Positions 28,117-42,850 are shown, counted from the first letter of the stretch. The stretch: DNA of 59,933 nt from an uncultured virus (IMG/VR IMGVR_UViG_3300042477_000802) (IMGVR_UViG_3300042477_000802:62001-121933); one strand, 5' to 3'. Translations and numbers: made by a program. Notes: generated from the sequence alone by a model not told the origin.

Positions 28117-28126
28117 CGAGCGCCTC

Positions 28127-28438: not shown

Positions 28439-28453
28439 CTTATTACCTCTTTT

Positions 28454-28528
28454 GGACTCATCAGCAACCGTCTCACGGTTGGACCTGCCTCCACGGGGAA
28501 TGGTGGACCCAGAAGACAGGTTTCGTCC
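28454..28528 (-). ncRNA. Type II hammerhead ribozyme 2
   Basis: Same core; stem III CCTG/CAGG covaries with copy 1; cleavage between 28482 and 28481. Confidence 0.9.
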
Positions 28529-28571
28529 TGGTATATGGTCACCTACCAAGTCGAACAGGTAAGCTTTACTC

Positions 28572-29375
28572 CTACAGGTAGGTGCAAGTAGGAGGAGTAT
28601 CTTTATGAGGATCGGCAAAGAAGAAGTCATAAGCTCGCGCCCATTCCTCTTCGGAAACCGGCCAACCCACGGTGGATTCCAACCAATATTGGATGTAACC
28701 CAAAGAAGCATACAGCTTCATGTGACACGCTTTGTCATGCACAGTTAGGTGTGAATTCATGTCGAAACCTCCGGAGCATCAAGATAGATGCACCAAGATT
28801 TATTGTCTGGAGTCAATCCCGCAAATCGCAGTGGTTGCGAACCCACCGCACACGGCTTGCGCATCATGGGAGGAGAGGCCACCAGAGATTGAGACCGAAG
28901 TTCTGATTCAATCTCGTGAGACCAGGAACATCGTTGAGGGAAACCCGTCAGAAGAGACTGACTAATGAGTCTCTCTACTTGAGATTTGACTTCCATCTCA
29001 CACGCGCCTCCGTCAGGTTTTACGTCTGAACAAGTGTTTCCAATGAATGCGCAAAGTGCACTCCTCTTCAGGGAGACGATCTACTCTGAAACCTTGTTTT
29101 CGTAGCTCTTCCACCACCAAATTCACTGCCATGTCAGTGGGAACTTCGAGGGAAGTTACCTTGAAGAAATTCGTGTTAACTTCGAGGAAATCGAGCACGA
29201 AGAAATTCAACAGTGCGTCTTCGCTCGTCACCATGTCAAAAATTCCAACATCAGTGGCAGGCTTCAAAAACTTAAGAATTCGCTCTGGAGTCATGCCTGC
29301 GTTCACCTGTTGCTGAAGATTGTGTCGATTGTTAATCGACAGACTAAAAGCCCGTTCTGCTGCCGTTTGCGTCAT
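28572..29375 (-). CDS. Three small hypothetical genes (28572-28760, 28757-28996, 29013-29375)
   Basis: Packed minus-strand ORFs between two hammerheads. Confidence 0.55.
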
Positions 29376-29398
29376 ACTTGGTGACCCTCTGAAACTTT

Positions 29399-29474
29399 GG
29401 ACTCATCAGCAACCGTCTCACGGTTGGACTTACCTCCACGGGGAATGGTGAACCCATGAAGGTAAGTTTCGTCC
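29399..29474 (-). ncRNA. Type II hammerhead ribozyme 3
   Basis: Same core; stem III CTTACC/GGTAAG; cleavage between 29427 and 29426. Confidence 0.9.
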
Positions 29475-29510
29475 TGGCATATGGTAACCTACCAGTCCGA
29501 ACCGAGCAGA

Positions 29511-31400
29511 CTATGCAACTGCTCGCTTGGCGTCTTTCACCTCTTCCTTCATCAAATCCGGAACTCCCTTGATCATCGGCTCCACTCGAGATTCCGCTCT
29601 CGGCTCCACCCGAATCTTCTCCGGCATCGGCAACTCCATCACTTGCGCCACAATTGGCGCCAAGAAGGCCATGGCCTCATTGACCACTTCATTGCCCACC
29701 ATGGCAATGGAATCAATGGCCCATTCATTGGCCAAAGCTTGCGCACGGACATCCTCTCGCATCATCGGAAAGTAACGGAAACTCCAGGCCAATCCCTGCT
29801 GAATCATGGCCAACCCATAATCCGTGGCCATCACTTCCTTGGCCGTGACAATCCAATGCTTGGGCGCCTTCTTGGCCTTCAAGAAAGCCAGCAAAGCCGT
29901 GCGGGCGGTCTTGGGAATGGTCTTGGCTGCCACTCGAAAGGTCCCCTGAGACAGATCCGACTTGACATGATCCATGAAACTGTTGCTCATAACAAACTCC
30001 TGTGATTCCGATGCTGATTGATTCTGATCCCCCGATGTCGGGGGGACAAACTGATGTGTCTGTGTGGCGGGTTTAGCGACCTGGTCTGAACCGTGATGAT
30101 ACCAATGATCGTCTTCTTTCTTGAATTCGATCGCTGGTCCATCTACCTGCTTCCAGCCACGTGCCATCAACTTCTTGGCTTTTTCTTGTCTCTTCTCCGT
30201 CAAATTAGTCAAGACAGAGAAAGTCTTCTTACGACAGGATGCCAGAATGTCTGAGATAGAAGACTTCACTCGCTCCGCGAAAACAAAGCAGTGTCGATCT
30301 GGATGATAGGCCAGACAATTGACGTCTAGGTCTTCCTGACCCTCGGAAGGATATTGGGCACGATCGGATCCAAACACCACATCCATTGGTAAACTGGCAC
30401 CCGTCTTGGTGTCAGTTAAAACATAGGTGTTGGTGTAAAACCCACCTTCGTATCCCAACCCTTTCATTTTTTCACACCTCCAACCCGATGGAAGATTCGC
30501 CTCCATCTGTTTGATGAACGCCACCGAGTAATCGACGGTGGCATGAGGGTGGAAAGGGAAAAAGAGATCCAGGTCTTGGGGGAGGAAGCGGGTTCCTCCC
30601 CCAATTGTATATGACCACGCAATGCGATCTCGCACCGCACCACCAAATAAATAACCACGAATCGGGTGATTACCCACTTGGGGACAGACGTTTTGCAAAC
30701 ACCTGGTCACCAATCCCCAGGCCTGATGATTGAATTCAGACTGAACCTGTTCACTGACATGAGTGCCCATGGTCACATCTTTCCAGCCATTAGCTGTCAA
30801 CTTCTCCACTTTGGCTTGACGTTCCTTCGACAAAGGAGAGACCACTTTGAATTCTTTCCGCCGGATGGCCTCCTGCAGTTGTTCTACTGTGGTGGTTTTC
30901 TCTACCACCTTCGAGTAGAGAAAGAAATCATCATCTGGATGATAGGCCAGACAATTGATATCCAAATCTTCTTGGAAGAGACAAGGTTGTTGACGAACGG
31001 TTGAGATCACTACATCTAGTGGAATCTGCGCGCCTGTCTGCCTATTACGCAGACAGTAGGTATTAGTCTCGTAGGTTCCACCATACGACTCAGAACGCCC
31101 CTCTAACCAAAACTCCCACTCCTTCGGGAGTTTCCCTTGCAATTCTGTAAGGAACAAGAAACTATGATCCACACTGGAGCGTGGATCTACCTGGAAAAAG
31201 AGATCGATGTCTCGGGGAAGGAAATAGCTCTTTTTGCTCCCATACCAACAGAGACGCTCTCGGACCGCACCCCCAAAGATGTATCCAGGAGGATCTTCTC
31301 CTCGTGGAAGAGTCTCCAAACACTTGGAGATGAGAGACCAGACTTTGAGATTAAATTCTTGCTGTTTCTTGACCGGAATGACAGAAGGAGGTGTCGACAT
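29511..31400 (-). CDS. Tandem CCA-adding/poly(A)-polymerase-like nucleotidyltransferase domains fused to shared C-terminal domain
   Basis: Two copies of FGGAVR...D[IL]DLFF...EDLD[IV]NCLAY; C-terminus SDLSQGTFRVAAKTIPKTAR. Confidence 0.8.
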   Translation of the reverse strand: MSTPPSVIPVKKQQEFNLKVWSLISKCLETLPRGEDPPGYIFGGAVRERLCWYGSKKSYFLPRDIDLFFQVDPRSSVDHSFLFLTELQGKLPKEWEFWLEGRSESYGGTYETNTYCLRNRQTGAQIPLDVVISTVRQQPCLFQEDLDINCLAYHPDDDFFLYSKVVEKTTTVEQLQEAIRRKEFKVVSPLSKERQAKVEKLTANGWKDVTMGTHVSEQVQSEFNHQAWGLVTRCLQNVCPQVGNHPIRGYLFGGAVRDRIAWSYTIGGGTRFLPQDLDLFFPFHPHATVDYSVAFIKQMEANLPSGWRCEKMKGLGYEGGFYTNTYVLTDTKTGASLPMDVVFGSDRAQYPSEGQEDLDVNCLAYHPDRHCFVFAERVKSSISDILASCRKKTFSVLTNLTEKRQEKAKKLMARGWKQVDGPAIEFKKEDDHWYHHGSDQVAKPATQTHQFVPPTSGDQNQSASESQEFVMSNSFMDHVKSDLSQGTFRVAAKTIPKTARTALLAFLKAKKAPKHWIVTAKEVMATDYGLAMIQQGLAWSFRYFPMMREDVRAQALANEWAIDSIAMVGNEVVNEAMAFLAPIVAQVMELPMPEKIRVEPRAESRVEPMIKGVPDLMKEEVKDAKRAVA

Positions 31401-31512
31401 GGGTATCTCCGACCCGGCTCTCTGGAGTTATTAAGCGCACTTACAGGTTGGAAAGAAAGTGAGGAGTGCTCATCTGATTCCTTCTCTTGCTTTAGTGACT
31501 ACTGACTTCTCG

Positions 31513-31713
31513 TCAATAGCGACACTGACACACCTGGCACCGATTCCACTGCAGATTGGAATAGTTGGTCACTTGATACAAGGCCAACTTTTTCCCGGTC
31601 GGGATTCCTCCCAAACACTGCAGACAGGTCGGAACCGTCTCGCCTGGACGAAAGTACAAGGGATTCTTGGACAGACGAACCCGCAATTGATCCAACCACT
31701 TGGCTCGGGCCAT
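31513..31713 (-). CDS. Small Zn-finger-like protein
   Basis: CLQC...CQVC; AGGAG RBS downstream of motif copy 31746. Confidence 0.65.
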   Translation of the reverse strand: MARAKWLDQLRVRLSKNPLYFRPGETVPTCLQCLGGIPTGKKLALYQVTNYSNLQWNRCQVCQCRY

Positions 31714-31757
31714 GAGAGTTGCTCCTAGGTTGATGAGACGAGTGTTTAGTCGCTGGG

Positions 31758-31927
31758 TGACTCAGGTAGGAATCGAACCTACACTCAGCTAGATGCTGGC
31801 AAACGTGTACCTTTTAACCAGAACCTAACTGAGTCGGCAAACACTGAGGGTACACCTGAGTGTTCACTTCCTGTGTGAACTAATGTGAACTAATTACAGG
31901 AAACAGAAACCATTCTGTCATTGAGTC
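31758..31927 (-). ncRNA. Expanded tRNA-like RNA, family A copy 1 (170 nt)
   Basis: GACTCA/TGAGTC acceptor, ACAG-AATGGTTT-CTGT D-arm, three long stems, GTAGG-TTCGATT-CCTAC T-arm. Confidence 0.7.
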
Positions 31928-31933
31928 AAAAAA

Positions 31934-32053
31934 AAGCCCGAGTAGGAATCGAACCTACACCAAGACTTAACTCTGAGTCGTGTCGACCCGTACCTCAGAA
32001 TCAAGCTCAGCGAACCTGTAGATAAACAGCAGAAACCATTCTGTCGGGGGGGA
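31934..32053 (-). ncRNA. Expanded tRNA-like RNA, family A copy 2 (degenerate acceptor)
   Basis: Same D-loop and T-arm; two internal stems; poor acceptor pairing. Confidence 0.55.
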
Positions 32054-32202
32054 GACTCAGGTAGGAATCGAACCTACACTCATAGATATGCTGACCATCG
32101 TATCGATCCTTTGGCCAACATACTGAGTCGGTGAACACTCACCCTGAGTATTCACTTCCAATCAGTACTAATTGGAAACAGAAACCATTCTGTCATTGAG
32201 TC
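32053..32202 (-). ncRNA. Expanded tRNA-like RNA, family A copy 3 (150 nt)
   Basis: Same acceptor, D and T arms; TTCCAAT/ATTGGAA replaces TTCCTGT/ACAGGAA. Confidence 0.7.
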
Positions 32203-32257
32203 AGAAAACCCACCAGGTTCACCAGAGTGAACCTAGGAACCTGGTGGATGTGTCACT

Positions 32258-32692
32258 TCACTTCTCCGCCTTCTCCTTCACGTCGGACCACCGACAGATC
32301 CCACCACCCTTGCCCCTGCGAATCCCGAAAGCTCGGGTGCGAGGAGGCTCAGCCAGCTGGATGACCTCACCCGACTTGCGATCCTTCTTCTCCTGACGGT
32401 CGGCGTTGTCGTGGATGTAGGCCGTCACCTTCTCCTTCAGCACCGAGAAGTTCTCCGGAGTCGGATTGAGAGCCTGGACCACCCCACTGATCAGACTCTC
32501 CATCGGCAGAAACACACCGGGATACTGATCGAAAGCCGCATGGACATTCGATCCGATGGTGGTGTCCTCCAGCTCACGCTGGGCCTTGTAGCGGCTCAGT
32601 GCCATCTGGAATGCCTGCGTGGTCGCAGCCTCATCCACCTCACCCGTCACCTCATCACGAACCAGAACCACGTTGATCGAAAAACTGGACAT
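32258..32692 (-). CDS. Hypothetical protein, paralog of 12248-12667
   Basis: See paralog; GAGGAG RBS. Confidence 0.8.
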   Translation of the reverse strand: MSSFSINVVLVRDEVTGEVDEAATTQAFQMALSRYKAQRELEDTTIGSNVHAAFDQYPGVFLPMESLISGVVQALNPTPENFSVLKEKVTAYIHDNADRQEKKDRKSGEVIQLAEPPRTRAFGIRRGKGGGICRWSDVKEKAEK

Positions 32693-32739
32693 ATGCGTAT
32701 CTCCTCTGAAACCTGAAACCGTTGTTGTTGTTGTTGTTG

Positions 32740-32928
32740 TTAAGAGAGATTAAGAACTTGAGAAGCTTCCTCCTCGGAGAGGATCAGGTCGGTGGAGCAG
32801 TCGAGATAGGCATGGCGCCCAGTGCTCGGTTGCCAACAATAGAGCAGCCTTCTGCCCGTCCGGGTAACGAATTCCTCTTCCGTCCCACCATTGGCTGGAT
32901 ACCAGTTGCCTTGTTCCCGGGTTTGCAT
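32740..32928 (-). CDS. Small hypothetical protein
   Basis: MQTREQGNWYPANGGTEEEF...; directly after promoter-motif copy. Confidence 0.65.
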   Translation of the reverse strand: MQTREQGNWYPANGGTEEEFVTRTGRRLLYCWQPSTGRHAYLDCSTDLILSEEEASQVLNLS

Positions 32929-33035
32929 GTTCCACCTGTAGGGAAGTGTAACCAAACTTAGTCGCTGGGAAACCGTGTCACTACCTGTCGTCTCGTGTCA
33001 GACAGGAAAGTGCGACCAAATTTAGTCGCTGGGAC

Positions 33036-33650
33036 TCAGCCCGCCGAAAACTTGCTGACACTGGGTTTCGACTTGACGCCCCATCCCAACCGACCCGACG
33101 ACTTGGCTTGACCCTTGATCACGGGTCCAGGCTTGGATGCCAAGACTCGTGCCATGGCATCCTGACGAGTGATGGTAGAGGAGAGCAGTTGACCATGCTT
33201 GTTGAGTTGCGTGGCATGAGACACCACGGCAAACCAATCGTGCTCACCCTCGAACAATCGTCGGTCCGCCCAACGATCGGCCTCTTGGGGCTGGTCGAAT
33301 TCGGCCACCAGATCCACCCATTCCTGGTCCTCGGTCTTGAAACGTTGCGCCACCTTGCCTTCGGAGGTATAGATGGTGACTTGCCAGTTTTTGGGCGTGC
33401 GCTCCGTCACTTCGTGCGCTCGCTCCAACTTGGACACTTCGGAGGCAATCATGTGATTGAGAATCACTTGACGCAATTCCGACAAGGCCGGAGTCGGCAT
33501 CAGCTCTTTGGCATCCAACTTGGCCAGAATCGGGCCGGTGACCGGATAGAGCTCTCCCGTTTCCAGAAAGGTCCGGTGAGCCGCCAGGAAGGCACTGGCC
33601 GAAGCCGCCGCTTTGGTTCCCGACTTGTGCAAAAACATCTTGGGCGTCAT
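33036..33650 (-). CDS. Hypothetical protein
   Basis: Start MTPKMF after AAAGGA RBS; stop 2 nt before the next motif copy. Confidence 0.75.
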   Translation of the reverse strand: MTPKMFLHKSGTKAAASASAFLAAHRTFLETGELYPVTGPILAKLDAKELMPTPALSELRQVILNHMIASEVSKLERAHEVTERTPKNWQVTIYTSEGKVAQRFKTEDQEWVDLVAEFDQPQEADRWADRRLFEGEHDWFAVVSHATQLNKHGQLLSSTITRQDAMARVLASKPGPVIKGQAKSSGRLGWGVKSKPSVSKFSAG

Positions 33651-33714
33651 ACTGGTATCCTTTCTGTAGGGAAGTCTCACACCATGTCAGACTTCGAGAT
33701 CACAATTTAGTCGC

Positions 33715-33780
33715 TGGGGTCTTCTCCAGGTATCGAACCTGGCTTGGTTACCACACCAAGGCTCCGTCATGCCAGAAGAC
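33715..33780 (-). ncRNA. 66-nt mini tRNA-like RNA
   Basis: GTCTTCT/AGAAGAC-C-CCA, CCAGG-TTCGATA-CCTGG T-arm, CTTGG/CCAAG hairpin with GTG in loop. Confidence 0.6.
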
Positions 33781-33872
33781 TGGCCAAGTAGTATCACCAC
33801 TGCCGAGGGTATGATCCCTCCTAGTGACCAACACGACACTTAAGACTAGTGCTGGTGTTTCGTAGACTAGTT

Positions 33873-33924
33873 AGGCTCGTCAGTAATGGTTCCTACCATT
33901 AGACCATCTCAGATGGTTTCGCCT
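33873..33924 (-). ncRNA. Type II hammerhead ribozyme 4 (compact, unrelated stems)
   Basis: AGGC-GAAA-CCAT..ATGG-TC/TAATGG-TAGGAA-CCATTA-CTGACGA-GCCT; cleavage between 33902 and 33901. Confidence 0.85.
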
Positions 33925-33985
33925 TAGTTACCGTCTCGCATCATGAGGGAAGAGCGACAAAACTTAGTCGCTGGGAAGTTGACTT

Positions 33986-34172
33986 AGCAACCTGCGTGCC
34001 ATCCGCTCGCGTCTTGCATCCTTAGGGGAGAGTGACAAAACTTAGTCGCTGGGAAACCGTGTCAGCCAGTAGCGTGCCAGTAGCGCGTTCATCCTTTCGC
34101 ATCGTCTCGCACCCTTAGGAGAGTGTGACAAAACTTAGTCGCTGGGAAGTTGACTTAGCAACCTGCGTGCCA
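33986..34172 (-). promoter_or_regulatory. Single sigma54 -24/-12 boxes interleaved with the phage motif
   Basis: TGGCACGCAGGTTGCT at 33986-34001 and 34157-34172 (consensus TGGCACG-N4-TTGC); variant at 34064-34079. Confidence 0.75.
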
Positions 34173-34262
34173 TCGTATCGTGTCGCATCGGCAACCATAG
34201 GGGTAGGTGACAAAATTTAGTCGCTGGGAATTCCCTTTACGCGTATTAGGTGAGTGACTCCG

Positions 34263-34434
34263 TGGCTCACTTTATGCTAATTGCAATTAAGATGCCATTA
34301 AGTGCATTCCTGGTAAAACTTTACTGGTCTACTTCCTGTTATTAGCAATAGGTATGCCAAGGTAAGAGTATGTGTGATAGATGAGAGGAATCAAGTAAGT
34401 GGTCTACAGATTGCAGAATGCAAAGACAAGGCCA
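34263..34434. promoter_or_regulatory. Three inverted pairs of sigma54-type boxes
   Basis: TGG-N10-GC-N5-GC-N10-CCA at 34263-34297, 34325-34359 (one GT variant), 34400-34434. Confidence 0.7.
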
Positions 34435-34445
34435 AGGTAGAAACG

Positions 34446-34478
34446 AAAAAAGCCTCGCTCTCCGAAGAGAAGCGAGGC
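34446..34478 (-). terminator. Intrinsic terminator
   Basis: GCCTCGCT..TTCG..AGCGAGGC hairpin followed by T6. Confidence 0.85.
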
Positions 34479-34479
34479 C

Positions 34480-34860
34480 CACCCGTTTTAGGGTTAATGG
34501 ATTAGGGGCTGTCACGACAATGACCCAGATATGTCCGGCGTCTCATGGGACAGAAGGGGATTAACACCTAGAGCTACCTGAGACTGTCAGCGTAGCGGAT
34601 GCTTCCCGAGGATGCAACTATGTAATGTGAACTTCACATATCGATAACCCTATTATTATCTGTGATAGAGTTTTACACCAAAACACACACTTTTTTGATT
34701 GTTCACATCTGGACCAGGTAAACTATCAGGGTTATCGTTTCGTCAGCCACCGCAGCCTACTTTACGAGCTGGTGGTCCGGAGGGATGACGAAACTATCCT
34801 AGCGCGGTGGCATCACTTATTCCTATACGTAGGAGGTTGAGTCAACGCCAGTAGTAGGTT
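34480..34860 (-). ncRNA. Candidate large (~380 nt) structured RNA
   Basis: No track ORF; many complementary segments (GTTTCGTCA/TGACGAAAC, CGATAACCCT/AGGGTTATCG, GCTAC/GTAGC, TGTCC/GGACA), ends in terminator. Confidence 0.55.
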
Positions 34861-34863
34861 TGA

Positions 34864-35229
34864 CTACTTGGACTTACACAGCTCTCGAAAAACGTAGTCT
34901 GGACCCAGATCTTGCACCCGCTGGACAGCCAGGTGGAATTCGATCTGTTGATCGATCTTCAGACATTCGATGATGAAGAACTTGGGAGGACTCATGTGAG
35001 GAGCCGCAAAGAGATTGACCATCGCTTCTCGTTGCTGCCACACACACAAGCCTTCCGCACGTTCCACCAAAAGAACGGTTTCGTCATCGCCCAAGGGTCG
35101 GATGTGATCTGGATCGATGCCATGAGACATCTTCCGAATCTGTTGCGAGGCTTGATACCAAGCTTGTGCCAGATGTCGGGTCTCACGAGGACATTCGTCC
35201 AAGAGTTGATTCAACTGGAGTGCATTCAT
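34864..35229 (-). CDS. Hypothetical protein
   Basis: GGAGG RBS directly after motif copy 35254. Confidence 0.75.
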   Translation of the reverse strand: MNALQLNQLLDECPRETRHLAQAWYQASQQIRKMSHGIDPDHIRPLGDDETVLLVERAEGLCVWQQREAMVNLFAAPHMSPPKFFIIECLKIDQQIEFHLAVQRVQDLGPDYVFRELCKSK

Positions 35230-35267
35230 CTTTTAACCTCCGGGAGAAAAAACTTAGTCGCTGGGAG

Positions 35268-35369
35268 TCATCCGCCAAGGGACCACAGAAAGGCGTTCCC
35301 CAAACACCAGCCCACCAGCAAAGACAGCAGGACCGCCACCAACACCAGCACCGCACCCTCACGCATCAT
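35268..35369 (-). CDS. 33-aa hydrophobic peptide
   Basis: MMREGAVLVLVAVLLSLLVGWCLGNAFLWSLGG; GAGGA RBS. Confidence 0.6.
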   Translation of the reverse strand: MMREGAVLVLVAVLLSLLVGWCLGNAFLWSLGG

Positions 35370-35508
35370 GACTTCCTCTGTGGAATGGGTTGAATCCAAC
35401 CCTCCCAGTGGTCCCGTTGGAAACGGGACAGCTCTTGTTGGGCAGCTGACAGAGAGGAGTAGTCTAGACGGAGTACTCCCGTGGGATGTTTGATTACCAA
35501 GCGATAGA

Positions 35509-35682
35509 TCACTTGGTCCACACCAGATAGAAGAACCCTCCCAGGATGACCAGCGCCCAGGGGAACTGAATCCCACTGCCGATCGGAATGGTGAACCCTG
35601 CGACCCAGGCCGCAGGAGCAAACATCTTGATCGCCATCACCACCCCAAACATGGCCGCTACCACCACCAACAACTTGCTCAT
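35509..35682 (-). CDS. 57-aa two-helix membrane protein
   Basis: Not in track: MSKLLVVVAAMFGVVMAIKMFAP...WALVILGGFFYLVWTK; AAGGAG RBS after motif copy 35705. Confidence 0.7.
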   Translation of the reverse strand: MSKLLVVVAAMFGVVMAIKMFAPAAWVAGFTIPIGSGIQFPWALVILGGFFYLVWTK

Positions 35683-35716
35683 CTGTAGTCTCCTTTGACA
35701 AAACTTAGTCGCTGGG

Positions 35717-35790
35717 TGGCCCGGGTGGGAGTCGAACCCACAAGAAAGCGGTTTTTAAAACCGCCACGTCTGCCATTCCGTCACCGGGCC
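35717..35790 (-). tRNA. tRNA-Leu(UAA) with short variable region
   Basis: GGCCCGG/CCGGGCC-A, GGAATGGCAGAC, GCGGT-TTTAAAA-ACCGC, GTGGG-TTCGACT-CCCAC; 74 nt. Confidence 0.88.
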
Positions 35791-36006
35791 TCAATCATAG
35801 GCATGTGAAACAAAACTTAGTCGCTGGGAACCTAACGCATCGTGTTACATCGTTAGGTGTAGGTGACAAAACTTAGTCGCTGGGAGATTGCCCCAATCCG
35901 CGTACCATCCTTTCGTTCATCCGTACCGCATCAGCAACCTTAGGGGTGTGCGAAAAAATTTAGTCGCTGGGAAAACCTGAGCTCCCTCTTAAGGTGACTG
36001 GGAGTC

Positions 36007-36112
36007 TGGCATGAGCCTTGCTAGGCTGCAATTTGTGTGCCAACAAGTACATCCCAGGTAAAAAGTCAGAACTCAATTGGCATCTATTATGCAGACTGCA
36101 ATTAATAGACCA
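36007..36112. promoter_or_regulatory. Two inverted pairs of sigma54-type boxes
   Basis: 36007-36042 (6-nt spacer) and 36078-36112 (5-nt spacer); all four halves GG-N10-GC. Confidence 0.72.
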
Positions 36113-36118
36113 AGACAG

Positions 36119-36147
36119 AAAAACAAGAAAGCCGGCTAACCGGCTCT
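36119..36147 (-). terminator. Intrinsic terminator
   Basis: AGCCGG-TTAG-CCGGCT followed by TTCTTGTTTTT. Confidence 0.7.
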
Positions 36148-36152
36148 CCTTT

Positions 36153-36440
36153 TTACTTCCAGAGGTTTCTCTTACGGGCAACTTCCGCGAGCGCCATTGT
36201 TTCCCTCTGGACACGAGATTCCTCGAATATCCAACGCTCTGCTTCCTCTTCCTCTCTCTCTTCCTCTGAGCGTCTATTTTCCTCCCAAGCTTGAAACGGA
36301 TCCAGTTTCTGGATCTGGCGCATCATCACTTGGTTGGCCATTCGATGATTGGGAAGAATCCACTTTTTCCGCTCCACCGTCGGCAGCAACGGATCCCACT
36401 TCGGAAACAGAGGATTGATGACCAAATATTCCATCTTCAT
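36153..36440 (-). CDS. Hypothetical protein
   Basis: GAGGT RBS after motif copy 36471; Glu-rich. Confidence 0.7.
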   Translation of the reverse strand: MKMEYLVINPLFPKWDPLLPTVERKKWILPNHRMANQVMMRQIQKLDPFQAWEENRRSEEEREEEEAERWIFEESRVQRETMALAEVARKRNLWK

Positions 36441-36484
36441 GAGACACCTCTCAGGCTGCGAGAAAAAAACTTAGTCGCTGGGAG

Positions 36485-36724
36485 TCAGAACGGAATCGGA
36501 TGCTCCTCTTGACACACCGGCTCCCAAGGTCCCCAGGCTCGACACACCGCTCTCCACGGATCTCGTTGCTGCGCCTGGAACCGCTCTTCTTCTTCCGCTT
36601 CCTCTTGCAGCCGCTCTTGTTTGGCGAACTGGTGCGCCATACGCCGCTCTTCCTCCCAAGTATCATTGGGAAAGGAAGTTTCCTCCAACCAATCGTAGTA
36701 GTCTTCCTCATTCAGGAACAACAT
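36485..36724 (-). CDS. Acidic hypothetical protein
   Basis: Start moved to MLFLNEE (AAGGA RBS); the longer track ORF runs through regulatory DNA. Confidence 0.7.
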   Translation of the reverse strand: MLFLNEEDYYDWLEETSFPNDTWEEERRMAHQFAKQERLQEEAEEEERFQAQQRDPWRAVCRAWGPWEPVCQEEHPIPF

Positions 36725-36909
36725 GTGAATCCTTCTGAGCGCTAGGCTCACTACTAGGACTGCGAGAAAAAACTTAGTCGCTGGGAGATTGCCCGAGCAA
36801 TCTGCAAACCATCCTTTCGTTCCGTGCCACATCGGCAACCTTAGGGGTGTGTGAAAAAATTTAGTCGCTGGGAAGCTCGCTTCGAGCTCTCTCATGCACT
36901 CATGTTTCC

Positions 36910-37022
36910 TGGCTTGCTTCCTGCTCTTAGCAATGAATAGGCCAACCTTAAACATCCAACCACATGAGTTTAGAATGAAGTCTTAACTGGCACCAGAATT
37001 GAGATTAGCAATTCTTAGGCCA
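36910..37022. promoter_or_regulatory. Two inverted pairs of sigma54-type boxes
   Basis: 36910-36944 and 36988-37022 (one GA variant), 5-nt spacers. Confidence 0.7.
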
Positions 37023-37031
37023 ATCAACAAC

Positions 37032-37077
37032 AAAAAGCCAAACAGGAGATCCTGGTGATCAGCCAGGGCTCCTGTTC
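37032..37077 (-). terminator. Probable intrinsic terminator
   Basis: AACAGGAG.CCTGG..CCAGG.CTCCTGTT hairpin then GGCTTTTT. Confidence 0.6.
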
Positions 37078-37180
37078 TTGTCTGCAACAGCTGAGTCGGC
37101 CACCGCTGACGCTCAAGAAGTTGAGCACCAGCGTAATGGTTAGTCAGGCATGGGAGATAACTTTCCTGTTCTGGCTCGTC

Positions 37181-37822
37181 TCAGTACAGATCCTTGCGGA
37201 TCTCCACCAGACGTTCCCGCTCCAACTGCGCCAGGGCAGTTGCCTTGGCGCGCGCTTCCGAGAAGAGCGGAGCCGCTTCCGCCTCTCGCTCGTGCTGAAT
37301 GATGGCCGCCACTGCCAGCCGCTCTCTCGCTTCCAGGTTGTTCCGATGCGTGCTGACCGTGTCAGGCACTCCCGAAACGTACCCCTGGATCGAAGCCTGG
37401 AGTCGAGCCGCTTCCTGCTTCTCAGTTTTAGAGACCGCCGGAAGATGCTCCCCTCGCTCTTGGCGAGCCTGACGAGCAGCCAGGCTGCGAGCCTGGAATT
37501 CCTGAGAGCCGAAGTCTTTGCTGACATCGTAGCCGATGAAAGCGTTGATCGCTGCGATCATGTCGCTGCGATGAGCATCTTGGTTGAAGTGACGAACCTC
37601 AGCAGGATCTGTCATGTAGCCTGCGACCTTGGTTCGCGCCAAGTACTCGCGATGGTCGATCTGCTCCGCACGAGGTAGCAGGCTGGAAGTGGGAGCTTCC
37701 TTATTGGCCTTGCGGAAGGCTGGAGTCTTGGGAGGCTTGACTTCCACCAGCTGCTTCGTGGGTTCGGGCGAAGCGTAGGCCGAGACGAAACCGGAGAGTA
37801 GACGATCGATGGCATCGGACAT
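37181..37822 (-). CDS. Hypothetical helical protein, first gene of the leftward arm
   Basis: Start MSDAID after GAGGT RBS; GC-rich codons. Confidence 0.78.
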   Translation of the reverse strand: MSDAIDRLLSGFVSAYASPEPTKQLVEVKPPKTPAFRKANKEAPTSSLLPRAEQIDHREYLARTKVAGYMTDPAEVRHFNQDAHRSDMIAAINAFIGYDVSKDFGSQEFQARSLAARQARQERGEHLPAVSKTEKQEAARLQASIQGYVSGVPDTVSTHRNNLEARERLAVAAIIQHEREAEAAPLFSEARAKATALAQLERERLVEIRKDLY

Positions 37823-38024
37823 GAGACACCTCACTGTGAGAGGGGAAGGAACTGGGGCTCACCACTAGGACCGAGCGACAAAACTTAGTCGCTGGGAGCT
37901 TTCCAGCGAGGAGCAGGGCGCCCTTTTCGGGCGAGAGAGACACGGCTCGTCCCTAGGGAGCAGTGACAAAACTTAGTCGCTGGGAAAAGAGCGAAGCGAG
38001 CTCTCTTAAGGTCGCTTCGTCCTA

Positions 38025-38231
38025 GGGTCCGTCCCTTGCTAGTCAGCAAAACCAATGCCAACTAAGACTAGATTACTTAGTCTTGGCAAGCTTCTTGCTA
38101 AAAAACAATTAATATGCCAAGCAATTAATTAATAATAAGTTAATACTTCTTAATAAAGTTATTAATTAATAGTTAGTTATTCTTTGATTAGTTGTTGGTT
38201 TGATTCTTGCTAAGAATCAAGAAGAATGCCT
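38025..38231. promoter_or_regulatory. Three inverted pairs of sigma54-type boxes
   Basis: 38025-38060, 38084-38119, 38196-38231, 6-nt spacers; two minus halves have a -12 variant. Confidence 0.65.
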
Positions 38232-38282
38232 AATGGGTTCCCGGGCTGGAAAAAGGTGGGGGATTCGGGGGACAGGCTGGTT

Positions 38283-38530
38283 TGGGGCCTCCCAAATAAG
38301 CAAATAGTTAAATAAGCAAATAAGTAAATATGTAAACTTAGAACTCTTAAACTTAGAACTCTTAAAATAAGAACAGAGTTAAAGAGTTAACTAAGCAACT
38401 AAAAATAAGTAAAAAGTGAAAGAGTTAACTAAGGAAACTTAAGATTCTCAACTGGAGCAGTAAATTAACTTACTACTCTCAACTAAGTACATAGTTAAAC
38501 TTAGGACTCCCCAATAGATTGACTAAATAA
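38283..38530. repeat. AT-rich short-repeat tract at the strand switch (candidate origin or terminus)
   Basis: 8-bp periodic AAATAAGC-like units, TAAACTTAGAACTCT x2, AAAGAGTTAACTAAG x2. Confidence 0.6.
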
Positions 38531-38743
38531 TTTCAAAAGAGGTGTTTTGAAAATTCAAAATGGGCCAATTGAACTTTTTGGGTCTCAAAACGCCTCAAAA
38601 AAGAGGTAATCATCCACTAAAAATGGTAAAAAGTGGGACAAAGTGGTAGAAAAAAAAACGTTAAAAACGATAAAGTATCTTATCACGTTTCAAAATTGTA
38701 AATAACGAGGCATATTTTTATAGCGCGTCCGAAGGAGTAAAAA

Positions 38744-38977
38744 ATGCTTATTTTGCTGAGGATTAGTTTAATTTTGTTAGTCGGATGTATTAATACAAGT
38801 TATTCTGTTAATTTTGGTGAAGCTAGTAAAGCTAGTAAAGCTAGTGAAGCTAGTAAAGCTAGTGAAGCTAGTAATTGGAGACCAGAAGAACTGAGGAGAG
38901 AGGAGAGATTGGGTTTATGTCTACGTGATGGGAGACGGGTGGTAGATTTATTATGTCGAGCCGGAGGTTCTAGATGA
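38744..38977 (+). CDS. Small lipoprotein with 9-bp tandem repeat
   Basis: LLVGC lipobox; (A/G)AAGCTAGT x5 encoding [EK]AS repeats; AAGGAG RBS. Confidence 0.6.
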   Translation: MLILLRISLILLVGCINTSYSVNFGEASKASKASEASKASEASNWRPEELRREERLGLCLRDGRRVVDLLCRAGGSR

Positions 38978-39633
38978 AGAAGATGATGTTAATGTTATGG
39001 ATGCTAATGATGATGGGATGTCAACGAGGAGGGGAAGTAGTGATTAAGAGTGGGGAGGAGATTTATCAAGGAGGGAGTGATCAGACGGTGGCGTTAGTGC
39101 AGTGGATGGGCGGGAAGTTACGAATTAACTGTGCTGGGGTCTGGATTAGTGATTATGAGATAGTGACAGCGGCGCATTGCGTTCGAGACCAGAAGAAGAA
39201 GGTCTTATACATTAAGAATAATGAGATTAAGGGGTTAGAGGTTCAAGGGAGAGGGAGAGAGGCGGAGGTGGTGTATTATGATGTCTTGCGGGACGTGAGT
39301 ATTTTGAGGAGTTATGGGGATAAGAGTCATGGAGTGGCGGAGATTCGGCCGGGGTTGCCTCGGATTGGGGAGGAGGTGCACATAGTGGGGCATCCGGCCC
39401 GAATGCCTTGGAGTTACACTCATGGACTAGTGAGTGGGTATCGTGTGGACTGGGAGCGATTTATCCAAGTGGATGGGGCGGTGTGGTATGGCAATAGTGG
39501 AGGTGGGGCTTTTGATCGGGAGGGTCGATTAGTGGGGATTGCGGTCCAATTGACGGAGGCGCCCGGGATGGCGTATTTTACTATCAGTCAAGATATTAAC
39601 TTAGCTTGGGAGAGAAGTAGAGGGATAAAATGA
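38974..39633 (+). CDS. Trypsin-like serine protease, putative lipoprotein
   Basis: TAAHC, RDVSIL, GNSGG triad motifs; MMMGC lipobox. Confidence 0.88.
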   Translation: MKKMMLMLWMLMMMGCQRGGEVVIKSGEEIYQGGSDQTVALVQWMGGKLRINCAGVWISDYEIVTAAHCVRDQKKKVLYIKNNEIKGLEVQGRGREAEVVYYDVLRDVSILRSYGDKSHGVAEIRPGLPRIGEEVHIVGHPARMPWSYTHGLVSGYRVDWERFIQVDGAVWYGNSGGGAFDREGRLVGIAVQLTEAPGMAYFTISQDINLAWERSRGIK

Positions 39634-40151
39634 GACTTGGGATATTGATGATATTAATGATTTGTTTAGGATGTGGGAAGAGATATTATCCGATGGGAGG
39701 ACAAAATATAGAGCGGGAGGTACATTTAATGTATGTGGATACGCGATTTAATGAAGTAGAGCGAGAGGGGATACGATTAGCTATTAAGGATTGGGAGGAA
39801 GCATTGAATGGGGTAATAAGGTTAACGGTCGTGGATTGGGACTTTGATATGGAGGTGGAGAAGATTGTTAGGAAAGGTGAGGGAGATTGGTTAATTTTGA
39901 AGCTTCGAGAGGAAGATGAGATGAGTGGGGATCGGAGGGTGTTAGGGTTTGTGAATAAGGTTGGAGGGGATACGATGTGGGTGGTTGGAGAGCGAGCGAA
40001 GGGACGGATTCGGGAGGTGATTCGGCATGAGATAGGGCATTTATTGGGGGTGATGCATCCGGAGATGGAGTTAGAGGATGGATGTCTGGGTTGGGAGACG
40101 ATGGAGGAGATTAGGAAGCGAGGGTATGGCGGGATGAGGTATTGTGATTAA
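39630..40151 (+). CDS. Metzincin-like zinc metalloprotease, putative lipoprotein
   Basis: HEIGHLLGVMH (HExxHxxGxxH); CLGC lipobox. Confidence 0.82.
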   Translation: MRLGILMILMICLGCGKRYYPMGGQNIEREVHLMYVDTRFNEVEREGIRLAIKDWEEALNGVIRLTVVDWDFDMEVEKIVRKGEGDWLILKLREEDEMSGDRRVLGFVNKVGGDTMWVVGERAKGRIREVIRHEIGHLLGVMHPEMELEDGCLGWETMEEIRKRGYGGMRYCD

Positions 40152-42409
40152 TGGAGGAGAGAGAGCAGGTCAATTTTTTGATTAAGTTGGGAGAGGGAGG
40201 GGAAGTCTGGGGACAGGAGATAAGGAATTTGGATGGTGGACGGGGGTTGTTGTGGGTGATGGAGGATAATTTTGGAAGATTGTTGGAGGAAGTCGAGTTC
40301 GAGAAATTTGGAGTATTGGGAATTGAGGGACATGGTTAGTTTATGGAGTTGGTTATTATGGGAGAGGAGTTGGAGGTAATGGTGGTAGTAGGCGCAAGTT
40401 TTAGTGGTAGAGGAGAAGTGGAGGACATTTTTAAATTTTCTATAACAGATGGGACAATAGAGGGGATTGATCATGTGGTCCTTAGGCGAGGAGGGTAGCG
40501 AGTTGTAATTTTTTAATAGTTTGGGGAAGATTTTGGAGATCTGGTTGGAAGAAGGGGAGGATTTGGGCGCCCTGGACATGGTGAATGATTAAGGAGTGGT
40601 GGAGAGGGTAGAAGTAGGCGATGGAGGAGAGTTTGGGACAGATAGAGATGGCGAGGGTTTCCAATTCTCCTTCTTGGGAGGAGTTGAGGGGGAGGATAAA
40701 TTGGAAGGAGAGCAGGTGATTGATATGGGAGCAAGATTTGATGACAATTTGAGGGGCGGAGAGGGGGAATTCATTTTTGAGGGGATGGAAACATAAGGGG
40801 CAATCGGAGGGGATGATCATCGAAGGGCCATGAGGGTATAGATTTTGGATCTTAGTTTATTGAGGTCAGAAAAATCTGGGGAGAAGGTAGCCTGGATCTG
40901 GATGGGGGAGATTTCGCCTGGAGTGGTCCAGAACTGGGAGAATTGGAGTAGGAAATCAATTTTGACGAACAGGTGAGGAGGGGAGAGGCGAAATTTGATG
41001 ATGGAGGGAGGAGAATTGGGATCTAGGATTTGGGCGGAGAAGTGGTGATTCTGATGGAAGCAGGAGAATTCTGTTTTGGAGGAGGACAATTTATTGGTGA
41101 GAGGGAGGTGACAGATGGGGCAATTCATAGGAGGGCCAGGTAGGTGGAGATTTTTTGGATCATTTTTTCTTTTGATTTGAGATCCGAGAGAAGGAGGAGG
41201 GAGGATTGGAAGGAGACGGGAGGGAGATGGGGTTGGAGGACGGAGATGTGGGAGGATTGGTCAAAGACATTGGAGCGAATGATAAAGGAGGTAGAATTAT
41301 CTTTGGTGAACAGGAATTCGTGGCTAATGGAGGCCGGGAGGAGGAGGGATCGTTTGAGATCGAAGGACAGGAAGGAGGATTGGATATTAGATTTGCAGGA
41401 TTGGCAGAAGGAGTTGAGGAACAAGGAATTTTGTTGGAGGAAGGATTGGAATTCTAGGGGATGGGAGGGAGAGATCTGGTTAGAGGGCAGGGCGATTTGG
41501 AGGGAGAGGGTATGGAAATATTTGGTTTGCAGATTAAACGAGAGGTTTGAATGAGAGGTGATGGGGTAATGAATGATATTGGGGTGCCAATTGGGGGATA
41601 ATTTGGCGGAGACCAATTGGATAGAAATTGGGGATTGGCAGGAGAAGCAGGGATTATTGTAGTAAATAAAGTCTTGGAGGGTAAATTTCTCCATGGAGGT
41701 CTCTGGGTAAAAAGGTAAAGCTTACGAGTGGGTAGGTCAAGAGGGGGATAATTTTTTAAGATAGCAGGACATAGGTGTGTAATTTTTTTAATAATTGGGG
41801 GCGAGGGAGTTGGAGTAATTCGGAGATATTGGTAGTATCTGGGAGAGAAATTTTCAAGGGGGAGATAGTTTCGGGGACTTGGGAGAAGAGCAATTGATAT
41901 TTAGTTTTACTATTTTCTCTCCACATTTGGATGACGAAGACATTATTTTCTTGGGGATTGGGGATGGAGTAATATTCTTCCAGGACGGCGTTCCAATGTG
42001 GAGGAGTTTTATGAGAATACCATGGGGTTAAGAATTTATTTTTTCTTAAAAAGAAGAATGATTCTTGGAGGAAGCAGCCTTGATTCATATTAATTTCCAG
42101 GGAAGAATTTTGTTGTTCGGCGATGATGGCGGAGGGATTACAGAGGTAATAAAAATAAATTTCTTCCATATTATGGAGCGTGGTGTCATGGGGACTAATT
42201 TTGATAGTATCTTTATGGAGGTCTAATTGAAAGGGAAGACCTTTATGTTCCAGCGGTTGGAGGGTAAGGATATTATTACGGGGCGGTAAATTTTGGACAT
42301 ATACATTAAGATAATTAAAGATGGAGATGGTGGGTTGGGCGTACAGGGTTAATTTATTGTGGCAGATGGGGCAATATTTAATGGGCTGGATAAATTTTTT
42401 GAGATACAT
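40148..42409 (-). CDS. Five related CxxC Zn-ribbon proteins (40148-40474, 40482-40820, 40817-41128, 41125-41694, 41756-42409)
   Basis: N-terminal CPIC/CPLC/CFSC and C-terminal PD..L..L..KI..L tails; coupled starts/stops. Confidence 0.7.
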
Positions 42410-42439
42410 ATCTCATATATATAGCGGTAGGAGCACATT

Positions 42440-42850
42440 TTGAGAAGTAGAAAATATTTAGATTGGCCAAAGAATCATCGAGAGCAAATGGAGAAAATAA
42501 AGCGCAGTCATCTAGTCATTGACTTAAGTGAGATGACAGAAGATCAAATTTTAGCCGAGTTACAATTGGGCGGACAATTTATTATTGGGGCCTTCTTATT
42601 AAGATGTCGTTGGGTAGGAGAGACTCGGGAATTAGATGTTAATCTCTGGGAACAGACACGAGTTTGTTTAATGGGTAAAGAAAGTACCTTACATATTAAA
42701 TTTCGGGTTCAGGAAGACTTTCGGTTTAAGAATCAAGACTGGTTAACATATTTTAATATGTCTGGGCAAGGGGAGAAGATCCCGGAGCAGGTAGTAGTAG
42801 AGATCATTCGGTGGATTCAAGGGATCCAGAAGATGGCTTATTTACTGTAG
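42440..42850 (+). CDS. Hypothetical protein
   Basis: AGGAG RBS before TTG start. Confidence 0.65.
   Translation: MRSRKYLDWPKNHREQMEKIKRSHLVIDLSEMTEDQILAELQLGGQFIIGAFLLRCRWVGETRELDVNLWEQTRVCLMGKESTLHIKFRVQEDFRFKNQDWLTYFNMSGQGEKIPEQVVVEIIRWIQGIQKMAYLL

Follow-up and report, generated by a model that had tools for sequence, protein, structure and literature searches.

In phage T7, the tandem promoters A1 to A3 are strong early promoters of the host type that stand before small early genes, as do the elements described here, but they are sigma-70 promoters and non-palindromic. Bacterial sigma-54 (RpoN) promoters, which the present elements resemble, follow the form TGGCAY-N5-TTGCW, in which ten bases separate GG from GC, and lie in sense direction upstream of genes (PMC7057263; PMC4591121). 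Opening of such promoters is described as impossible without an enhancer-binding ATPase (PMC7057263), and the start site is placed 19 bp downstream of the motif centre (PMC4591121). Sigma-54 boxes on opposite strands that serve both sides of one control region through a shared enhancer are known from E. coli hycA/hypA and zraP/zraS (PMC4591121, Table 1). For sigma-70, symmetric bidirectional promoters have been reported whose core elements coincide on opposite strands and to which polymerase binds either way (Warman et al., bioRxiv 10.1101/2020.01.31.928960). A phage system with head-to-head sigma-54 pairs was not found in a literature search, in line with the original prediction, whose author knew of none.

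Such pairs occur in a stretch of 59,933 nucleotides (the window) from a contig that represents ~28% of a lake phage of ~450 kb. The phage derives from lake-water metagenomes, which lend no support to the myxobacterial or deltaproteobacterial host that had been suggested for it. Its ten paired units are read here, with a probability of roughly 0.55, as symmetric, host-type sigma-54 (RpoN) promoters at the head of early operons in a very large phage.

Geometry and sequence of the units

All ten head-to-head units of the original prediction were located at their given coordinates between 34263 and 38231, each 35-36 bp long, with a 5-nt centre in six units and a 6-nt centre in four (Table 1). A recount of the half-sites gave the same numbers as before: the GG-N10-GC spacing is exact in 16 of 20, and each of the other four carries one -12 change, namely GT in the plus half at 34325 and the minus half at 38084, and GA in the plus half at 36988 and the minus half at 38196. 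The T of TGG is missing in two halves, the plus half at 38025 (GGG) and the minus half at 38196 (AGG). The minus half of unit 10 was called the weakest of all halves. The sequence separating the blocks in one half of a unit is not the complement of that in the other half; hence, the symmetry is one of four blocks and not that of a hairpin.

Judged by their sequence, the half-sites are sigma-54-type boxes, as had been proposed, and they also agree with the extended consensus yTGGCAc(g/a)-N4-tTGC(a/t), that is, TGGCAY, then a purine, then TTGCW. Among the minus halves of the ten units, TGGCAY is found in 6/10 and TTGCW in 8/10. E. coli sigma-54 ChIP-seq sites share the half-site form when compared by eye (PMC4591121, Table 1).

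Enrichment over shuffled sequence, proposed as a check of the prediction, was likewise recovered. The strict pattern TGG-N10-GC-N5,6-GC-N10-CCA yields 10 strand-hits, corresponding to 5 units, in the 121,933-bp contig against a mean of 0.08 in 25 dinucleotide shuffles; for the interval 29000-38300, the mean is 0.01 and the maximum 2 over 200 shuffles. In the contig, TGGCAC-N5-TTGC occurs 6 times versus 0.20 in shuffles and TGGYNY-N5-TTGC 20 times versus 2.8. Five of the six exact TGGCAC-N5-TTGC sites read TGGCACG, the sixth being the minus half of unit 4 with TGGCACA. The geometry is fixed as well: of the 120 boxes that reach a score of 14/15 or more in the contig and in five regions from relatives, 66 belong to head-to-head pairs, with an offset of 19 in 28 cases, of 20 in four, and every other offset at most twice. 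Gaps of 4, 5, 6 and 7 bp between the facing -12 elements are all found, those of 5 and 6 bp both within the source phage.

Table 1 Paired units and neighbouring features in the window; half-site scores are out of 15 (sigma-54 box match)
Feature	Coordinates	Strand	Description
Unit 1	34263..34297	both	5-nt centre; minus half full consensus; plus 13, minus 15
Unit 2	34325..34359	both	5-nt centre; minus half full consensus; plus half CTGTT at -12; plus 11, minus 15
Unit 3	34400..34434	both	5-nt centre; immediately past terminator; 14 and 14
Unit 4	36007..36042	both	6-nt centre; full consensus twice: minus TGGCAC-N5-TTGCA, plus TGGCAT-N5-TTGCT; 15 and 15
Unit 5	36078..36112	both	5-nt centre; immediately past two-way terminator; plus 14, minus 14
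Unit 6	36910..36944	both	5-nt centre; plus 13, minus 14
Unit 7	36988..37022	both	5-nt centre; adjoins terminator tail; plus 12, minus 14
Unit 8	38025..38060	both	6-nt centre; minus TGGCAT-N5-TTGCT (full consensus), plus GGGTCC-N5-TTGCT; plus 13, minus 15
Unit 9	38084..38119	both	6-nt centre; plus TGGCAA-N5-TTGCT, minus TGGCAT-N5-TTGTT; plus 14, minus 13
Unit 10	38196..38231	both	6-nt centre; plus TGGTTT-N5-TTGCT, minus AGGCAT-N5-TTGAT; plus 14, minus 12
Intrinsic terminator	34443..34475	minus	9 nt between tail and unit 3
Two-way intrinsic terminator	36117..36153	both	5 nt from unit 5; called on both strands in scans
Imperfect hairpin and T-run	37023..37076	minus	ends transcription unit of the 217-aa gene; unit 7 at next base; seen by eye, not called by terminator scans
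Single consensus box	33986..34001	minus	12-nt spacing to next CCCAGCG motif, as box 34157..34172
Single box TGGCACG-N4-CTGGCT	34064..34079	minus	12-nt spacing to next CCCAGCG motif, as box 34157..34172
Single consensus box TGGCACG-N4-TTGCT	34157..34172	minus	C of GC 12 nt ahead of first C of next CCCAGCG motif
Single box TGGTTT-N5-TTGCT	36796..36811	minus	12-nt spacing to CCCAGCG motif; decayed paralogue at 35892-35907
Second motif, eight copies	31738..34228	minus	starts 34228, 34146, 34053, 33975, 33718, 33033, 32969, 31757; behind units 1-3
Second motif, five copies	35246..35971	minus	starts 35971, 35884, 35828, 35716, 35265; behind units 4-5; one before, one directly after tRNA
Second motif, three copies	36463..36872	minus	starts 36872, 36785, 36482; behind units 6-7
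Second motif TCCCAGCGACTAAGTTTTGTC, two copies	37877..37984	minus	starts 37984, 37896; behind units 8-10
tRNA-Leu(TAA)	35715..35790	minus	discriminator base 35717 adjoins first C of second-motif copy
First gene behind units 8-10	37181..37834	minus	217 aa, no family

Surroundings and occurrence in other phages

In the clade of the source phage, a terminator is followed by the pairs and these by an operon; in the window, the arrays start 5-18 nt past terminators. Minus halves of units 1-8 and the single boxes stand where a transcription unit begins and point in sense direction into its genes; downstream of the mirrored halves in units 1-7 there is no gene. Within units 1-7, the minus, gene-facing half scores higher in four, equal in three and lower in none, and at the divergent junction the minus half is favoured at unit 8 and the plus half at units 9 and 10. 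Behind the pairs, four single boxes follow in tandem in gene direction, and in 4/4 the predicted start is the first C of the second motif. Two single boxes elsewhere (contig positions 42926 and 48581) are oriented against the genes. Additionally, the second motif occurs twice more, at 12874 and 5195, and its first C also directly follows two tRNA-like 3' ends, besides the tRNA-Leu discriminator. Sigma-70-like promoters show no excess between 31500 and 38800 (3 versus 4.6 in shuffles). An AT-rich, repeat-filled stretch at 38100-38700 beside units 8-10 coincides with the strand switch and the minimum of the cumulative GC skew.

A search of relatives, proposed along with the prediction, also returned pairs. 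The IMG/VR record of the source phage (G001, 100% identical) contains 5 relaxed pairs, and four other huge phages, G002 to G005, contain 4, 10, 9 and 7, clustered in a small-gene region, while a reversed control pattern gave 0 in all five records. Three of these four relatives (G002-G004) encode a ~60% identical homologue of a source-phage protein. Units 1-7, like almost every pair in the relatives, stand one per operon head, spread over 4-18 kb. A terminator-like site is present within 120 nt of 13/26 arrays in the relatives (background 0.4-0.5 sites per kb), and in 10 of those 13 it is on the gene strand with its T-tail ending 3-24 nt ahead of the pair. By crude ORF calls, one G005 array lies between converging ORFs. 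Where all surrounding genes run the same way, as around 13 pairs of the relatives, the half facing the genes has the higher score in 10 pairs, the same score in 1 and the lower one in 2. All four related phages carry a CCCA-type motif 14-45 nt past each pair. This second per-gene motif (CCCAGCGACTAA...) varies among lineages while the pairs are constant, which fits a conserved host factor.

Beyond the clade, a scan of IMG/VR yielded 117 distinct viral units. Although the search pattern put no constraint on positions 5, 6, 7 and 16, TGGCAY is present on both halves in 86 units, compared to the ~2/117 that random bases at positions 5 and 6 would produce. Among the 234 halves, 197 have A at position 5, 211 a pyrimidine at position 6, 197 a purine at position 7 and 197 A or T at position 16. 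The pair motif is unchanged across contigs of 32-68% G+C, and 126/141 loci, examined over limited flanks, have no detectable protein link to the source clade. Five cultured large phages (1.17 Mb), whose hosts we take to generally have rpoN, contain 0 pairs, and in 596 Gb of cellular genomes only 18 stretches match a stricter pattern.

Factors that could act on the pairs were also sought in the five phage records with pairs, of which three are 97-100% complete. Sigma54_activat (PF00158) is absent from 5/5, the control being matched in 14/14 genomes, and Sigma54_DBD (PF04552) is absent from all five. No T7-type or Rpb1-type RNA polymerase was detected in the three 97-100% complete relatives, in a search whose T7 control matched nowhere. 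One Sigma70_r2 protein of ~214 aa is found in G002-G005. Only 9/96 ORFs flanking the pairs belong to a Pfam family and none is a DNA-binding regulator; neither a regulator gene nor a replication or partition gene recurs beside the pairs. As no PF00158 ATPase was found in the phages, early expression would depend on the host or on an unknown activator.

Possible functions of the facing boxes

If the units are promoters, each half would constitute a complete -24/-12 box, and host sigma-54 RNA polymerase could dock in either orientation, the two being mutually exclusive. By the 19-bp rule (PMC4591121), predicted starts fall on unit positions 27 and 9, divergent and 18 bp apart. The gene-facing half, on the minus strand in units 1-8, would drive the operon behind it, assisted by the single boxes in tandem. 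From the mirrored half, transcription would begin 18 bp away and proceed the other way, where it would at once meet the hairpin that terminates the operon before; at the divergent units 8-10, it would instead head for the plus-strand genes. The boxes, their geometry, their placement and their recurrence are observed, and from these we infer sigma-54 holoenzyme as the binder, as well as the start sites, productive transcription and its mode of activation. This reading is also favoured by the conservation of the pairs in relatives, by T7-type and Rpb1-type polymerases not being detected in the three 97-100% complete relatives, by the lack of an excess of sigma-70-like promoters and by the scarcity of pairs in cultured large phages and cellular genomes. 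The original prediction had regarded facing -12 elements as poor promoters, which is not supported: by that rule (PMC4591121) the predicted starts diverge without collision, and the arrays are placed between terminator and operon, with the better half facing the gene and four single boxes in tandem in gene direction. Counting against promoters, no enhancer-binding ATPase was found in the phages, RNA contigs aligned to the region do not extend over the units, the mirrored half of units 1-7 serves no gene, one G005 array sits between converging ORFs and two single boxes point the contrary way. Furthermore, a gap kept at 4-7 bp is left unexplained if the halves are independent promoters of which either one or the other is used.

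Strict two-fold symmetry and sharp spacing would also suit operators. In that case a dimer or tetramer, encoded by the phage or carried in its virion, would recognize the four T(G/T)GC blocks, spaced by one helical turn, and so control the promoter that follows, of the CCCA-type motif; any resemblance to sigma-54 boxes would be convergent or incidental. With that motif 14-45 nt past the pairs in the four relatives, a pair would occupy roughly positions -40 to -80 relative to a promoter there; the relatives encode a sigma-70-family factor of their own, and many flanking genes are without known function. Should the phage's own sigma factor use the second motif as its promoter, the pairs might serve as control sites upstream of it instead of as promoters. 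We nevertheless consider operators unlikely, because the sigma-54 consensus is matched at positions left free in the search and the motif persists across widely differing base composition and in loci with no detectable link to the clade. The lineage-specific second motif drifts while the pairs stay constant, and the co-variation with a neighbouring regulator gene expected of an operator is not seen among flanking ORFs devoid of recurrent or DNA-binding regulators. Gaps of four different lengths are hard to reconcile with a rigid dimer, and non-palindromic single boxes occur.

The original prediction favoured units that titrate or park host sigma-54 polymerase. With such unproductive binding, the units would form a sink or decoy, a parking place, a roadblock or a boundary between transcription units. 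Sigma-54 closed complexes are indeed stable and silent without the ATPase (PMC7057263). None of the five phage records yielded an enhancer-binding ATPase, no gene lies ahead of the mirrored half, and arrays stand at operon boundaries next to terminators, in G005 once between converging ORFs, with 20 paired and 4-5 single boxes inside 4.5 kb. A sink, however, needs neither fixed orientation nor a gap of 4-7 bp nor a place at the operon head. The better half is the gene-facing one, context and orientation bias favour promoters, and the predicted start of the single boxes falls exactly on a recurrent RNA 5' end. The lack of pairs in the five cultured large phages speaks against a general phage need, and this reading appears quite improbable. 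Replication-origin, partition or packaging sites are very improbable: the palindromes are clustered and units 8-10 adjoin the AT-rich repeat stretch at the strand switch and GC skew minimum, but units 1-7 and nearly all pairs in relatives mark single operon heads over 4-18 kb, unrelated contigs share the motif, and replication or partition genes are not recurrent neighbours.

Recurrence of the pairs in relatives and other uncultured phages points to an undescribed way to use or hold host sigma-54 polymerase. As a more tentative proposal, which we hold to be doubtful, huge phages from lakes and other habitats might run their early programme on this polymerase via a dedicated symmetric element, at which the enzyme is opened or locked without a canonical enhancer-binding ATPase. 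If so, this would imply a new type of activator, which the phage either brings along or encodes, or opening that is activator-independent and promoted by the mirrored box.

Comparison with known promoters

The phage units share with bacterial sigma-54 promoters one consensus across contigs of very different base composition. They differ from these in that two boxes point at one another across 4-7 bp between their -12 elements, that they form arrays of 2-3 and that they occur in a phage, with no gene for an enhancer-binding ATPase and no obvious upstream activator site. Symmetric bidirectional promoters are expected to have divergent starts 7-25 bp apart; in those of sigma-70 the distance is most often 18 bp, as predicted for units with a 5-nt centre (Warman et al., bioRxiv 10.1101/2020.01.31.928960). 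There, however, the -10 hexamer is itself symmetric and opening is spontaneous, whereas starts of the phage units are only predicted. A sigma-54 box is not symmetric in itself, so that selection must maintain the mirror half. In the E. coli pairs hycA/hypA and zraP/zraS, finally, the boxes are arranged back to back; their motif centres are 128 and 154 bp from each other, and activator sites occupy the space in between (PMC4591121, Table 1), whereas the phage boxes interlock within 35 bp.

Sequence and geometry of the paired boxes

When both strands of window 34100-38400 are read, all ten units of the original prediction are seen at the positions assigned to them. Within each unit, the blocks follow one another in the order TGG(C), T(T)GC, GCA(A) and (G)CCA, with ten bases from GG to GC in each half; the centre measures 5 nt in six of the units and 6 nt in the other four. 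The half-site count of the prediction likewise holds, as GG-N10-GC is intact in 16 half-sites out of 20 and the remaining four carry one -12 change. Bases between the blocks vary among units and the two halves are not complementary to each other there; hence, the symmetry of a unit is that of two bipartite sites and not of a hairpin. The comparison with shuffled sequence proposed along with the prediction gives enrichment for palindrome and box patterns alike: the strict palindrome yields 10 strand-hits (5 units) in the whole contig vs 0.08 in 25 dinucleotide shuffles, and 10 in window 29000-38300 vs 0.01 (maximum 2) in 200 such shuffles, and the single-box patterns TGGCAC-N5-TTGC and TGGYNY-N5-TTGC are observed 6 and 20 times vs 0.20 and 2.8, respectively.

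The fit to sigma-54 was assessed by scanning IMG/VR with the pattern TGGC-N7-TTGC-N5,6-GCAA-N7-GCCA, which leaves half-site positions 5-7 and 16 free and retrieves at least 124 loci with at least 117 distinct units (234 halves). Among the halves of the matches listed, position 5 is A in 197/234, position 6 is C or T in 211/234, position 7 is G or A in 197/234 and position 16 is A or T in 197/234. TGGCAY is present on both halves in 86 of the 117 units listed, on one half in 18 and on neither in 13, and about 2 of these 117 would be expected to carry it on both halves by chance. Compared by eye, the viral half-site profile appears to match the E. coli sigma-54 ChIP-seq sites as far as these are contained in Table 1 of PMC4591121. 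A scan for the back-to-back arrangement, planned as negative control, gave TGGCAY on both halves in 48 of 94 distinct matches, which derive in part from head-to-head arrays and in part from a second real arrangement. As this control is not clean, weight is placed on the internal TGGCAY signature and on reversed-pattern controls. Back-to-back pairs with -24 elements 5-6 bp apart are present in viral contigs (IMG/VR loci L171-L276), and tandem arrays fitting the same pattern occur in some giant-virus-labelled contigs.

The half of a pair that faces the genes tends to fit the consensus better. In relatives, the gene-facing half is closer to the consensus in 10 of 13 pairs, equal in one and lower in two; for window units 1-7, it is higher in four, equal in three and lower in none. 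At the divergent junction, the minus half is better in unit 8 and the plus half in units 9 and 10. According to PMC4591121, the distance from the motif centre to the sigma-54 start site downstream is 19 bp. On this basis, the starts of the two halves are predicted at unit positions 27 and 9, hence diverging and 18 bp apart, which speaks against the idea of two colliding promoters.

Genome context, unit region and second motif

One contig of 121,933 bp contains the window as its right half and matches, with 100% identity, a 128,541-bp IMG/VR record that is 28% complete by CheckV; the phage genome should thus measure about 450 kb. The phage is found in lake-water metagenomes. Pfam and PHROG scans of the 210 contig ORFs revealed no RNA polymerase, sigma-54, enhancer-binding ATPase, capsid or terminase. 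Annotated are a Ro60/TROVE protein, an RNA ligase, an aminoacyl-tRNA synthetase, IF-1, a SET domain and an intein-bearing ThyX, besides the very large family of "HREDGPA" repeat proteins. The 23-aa repeats of the latter (HREDGPA...G.K.W) build dozens of paralogous small genes throughout the contig, making up perhaps a third of it, with about 70% DNA identity and weak partial matches to DUF6745. Genes are encoded by the minus strand as far as about 38000, and plus-strand genes begin at 38744. The AT-rich stretch at this switch, which coincides with the cumulative GC skew minimum, is a possible replication origin. Long minus-strand ORFs in the adjacent C-poor stretch are probably artefacts because G-containing stop codons are missing there. 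The contig ORFs read well under the standard code; TAG might be a sense codon in late genes located off the contig.

Features of the phage (window positions unless marked as contig)
Feature	Position	Strand	Remark
Units 1-10 (starts)	34263, 34325, 34400, 36007, 36078, 36910, 36988, 38025, 38084, 38196		35-36 bp each
Single sigma-54 boxes	34172, 34079, 34001, 36811		three unrelated sequence contexts
Second-motif copies	31738-37984 (18), 12855-12874, 5176-5195, five left of window	minus	
Terminator	36117-36153		two-way
tRNA-Leu (Rfam end)	35717		
Gene-free stretch	34483-34893	minus	about 400 nt, from a 121-aa gene to a terminator
tRNA-like elements	31760-32250, 33720-33960	minus	several
AT-rich stretch	38240-38740		short direct repeats
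C-poor stretch	39000-42500	plus	C 6-11%, G 33-41%, GC skew up to 0.69
Trypsin-like protease gene	38974-39633		inside C-poor stretch
tRNA, anticodon CTA	4059-4134	minus	suppressor type; tRNA-Pyl per ARAGORN
ThyX gene	52989-54734		split by intein with HNH endonuclease
HREDGPA repeat genes (example)	54992-57461		
Ro60/TROVE gene	contig 27589-29142		
Two consensus sigma-54 boxes	contig 42926, 48581	against gene direction	left of window; second-motif copy 9 and 14 nt downstream; one box just past AAA ATPase gene

Along the minus strand, in 5' to 3' direction, the unit region comprises four modules with a common order of parts: a terminator, which the first module, situated at the divergent junction, lacks; then two or three units; next, 35-41 nt past these, the first occurrence of a second motif, TCCCAGCGACTAA(A/G)TTTT; one to three short cassettes, each with a terminal single sigma-54 box followed by another second-motif copy; and finally genes, tRNA-Leu or tRNA-like elements with the second motif ahead of each. 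This 20-nt motif is far better conserved than the units, occurs in 25 copies in the contig and stands upstream of all early genes, one tRNA and short non-coding cassettes. The C of GC lies 12 nt before the motif's first C in all four single boxes, which puts the predicted start on this C. Directly ahead of the first C of other copies lie the discriminator base of tRNA-Leu and the 3' ends of two tRNA-like elements. Together, these independent routes place the second motif at an RNA 5' end; it may be a promoter read by the sigma factor of the phage itself, or a 5'-terminal or processing element. A role as RNA hairpin was rejected since the 25 copies share no consistent fold. Sigma-70-like promoters are not enriched around the units (3 vs 4.6 in shuffles), nor is the Bacteroidota-type TAnnTTTG motif upstream of genes. 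The predicted mirrored start of units 1-7 would meet the preceding terminator hairpin at once.

Contigs from three metatranscriptome runs and one DNA run were compared with window 31500-38800. Metatranscriptome coverage stops short of every unit, and the contigs do not reveal starts; the DNA-run contigs carry no variant letters in this region and hence offer no natural variation to read. Rfam identifies only tRNAs in the window and nothing further in 31500-38800 at E up to 1. RNA contigs from three metatranscriptome runs of two studies cover the gene-free stretch, which has no Rfam match and is a candidate stable non-coding RNA. The tRNA-like elements share a GGTTCGAT(T/A)CC T-arm and adjoin the second motif with their 3' ends, and they are not recognised as tRNAs by ARAGORN or Rfam. 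Given the Ro60/TROVE protein of the contig, Y-RNA-like partners are worth considering among them.

Pairs in other phages

Relaxed pairs number 5 in the IMG/VR record of the same phage and 4, 10, 9 and 7 in four other huge phage records, G002-G005 (354-481 kb), and are confined in each of the five to one 4-18 kb stretch of small ORFs; the reversed pattern occurs in none of them. A homologue of one protein of this phage with about 60% identity is encoded in each of G002, G003 and G004. As its family is common in cultured myoviruses at about 42-45% identity, kinship of these three is likely, not proven. Searches for relatives with single proteins or DNA matched the same phage only, and a homologue search with a 628-aa protein gave 5 proteins. 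Across 72 further viral loci (328 kb), 284 high-scoring boxes were found beyond the selected pair, which make up 60 more head-to-head pairs, with offsets of 18-21, and about 12 pairs in back-to-back orientation. A protein in common with this clade is present at 15 of 141 loci, seven of which are the same records; with short flanks and fast-evolving genes, this does not prove independence of the loci. A stricter pattern yielded 18 stretches in 596 Gb of cellular genomes, several on short MAG contigs, and no pairs were found in five cultured large phages (1.17 Mb).

The setting of the pairs recurs in relatives. A terminator-like site lies within 120 nt of 13 of 26 arrays, at a background of 0.4-0.5 per kb, and in 10 of these 13 it is on the gene strand with its T-tail ending 3-24 nt before the pair. 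Past each pair, at 14-45 nt, follows a lineage-specific CCCA-type motif, namely (T/A)CCCATC-N3-TAACGG in G003, ACCCATC in G004, GCTCCCATTCAC in G002 and TCCCAGCGAC in this phage, whose exact second motif is absent from G002-G005 with 2 mismatches allowed. Plus-strand copies of the G003 motif number 41 and 19 in two regions vs 0.4 and 0.1 in shuffles, and 19 of 37 copies lie 30 nt ahead of an ATG. Hence, the pairs are invariant across lineages and the neighbouring motif drifts, as expected if a conserved host protein reads the former and a phage protein the latter. One protein of about 214 aa with a Sigma70_r2 match is encoded in each of G002-G005. A T7-type or Rpb1-type polymerase was not found in the relatives, which for the T7 type is weak evidence as the T7 control gave no signal anywhere. 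A crude hand count of flanking ORFs of at least 80 aa at 43 loci gave 16 divergent, 20 tandem and 7 convergent settings. Intragenic placement of most units was rejected, as spurious ORFs of at least 60 aa cover intergenic DNA, including a unit of this phage.

Interpretation, host and activator

Sigma-54 is the sole bacterial sigma factor unable to initiate transcription alone. We read the pairs as symmetric sigma-54-type promoters, with a probability of roughly 0.55. It is rather unlikely that they are bound by another protein, an alternative that has to accommodate the TGGCAY signature of both halves; should the CCCA-type motif serve the phage's own sigma factor as promoter, the position of the pairs would be that of an upstream control site. 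The narrow gap of 4-7 bp requires more reason than either/or binding alone supplies. Somewhat less probable still is non-productive sigma-54 binding, that is, silent holding or a roadblock, as in the decoy or parking role first proposed. This alternative gains from PMC7057263, by which closed complexes do not open without an enhancer-binding ATPase: neither this ATPase (PF00158) nor the sigma-54 DNA-binding domain (PF04552) was found in the five pair-bearing records, and firing of the pairs would thus depend on a host activator or one of another kind. An origin, partition or packaging site is very improbable.

For the preferred reading as sigma-54-type promoters, a conserved 272-aa AAA protein with homologues of 30-36% identity in G002-G005 is a speculative candidate activator; it has no Sigma54_activat domain match and no GAFTGA motif by eye. 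Host inference via the DNA polymerase of another pair-bearing contig, the DNA of IMG/VR locus L052, GMP reductase in a protein atlas and a DUF7275 protein, found across many myoviruses, gave no host. Two pairs and a neighbouring protein of 52% identity are present on a 3.6-kb contig that is binned in a Sediminibacterium MAG; this is a weak lead.

A conserved, interlocked double box at the head of every early operon would allow early regions of uncultured huge phages to be recognised by sequence and would constrain their hosts to bacteria with rpoN. The 35-bp element would also serve as a defined substrate on which to study how an enhancer-dependent polymerase is fired or immobilised by a virus and, if it works bidirectionally or activator-free, would be useful as a compact, orthogonal promoter part. 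We know of no description of sigma-54 as polymerase of phage early genes. A full-text search of literature outside subscription journals returned neither a description of sigma-54 boxes in the early regions of phages nor one of interlocked sigma-54 pairs, in line with the earlier remark that no such phage system had been described. A likeness is found in symmetric sigma-70 promoters, whose commonest start spacing, according to bioRxiv 10.1101/2020.01.31.928960, is 18 bp and thus the same as the start spacing predicted for the pairs described here.
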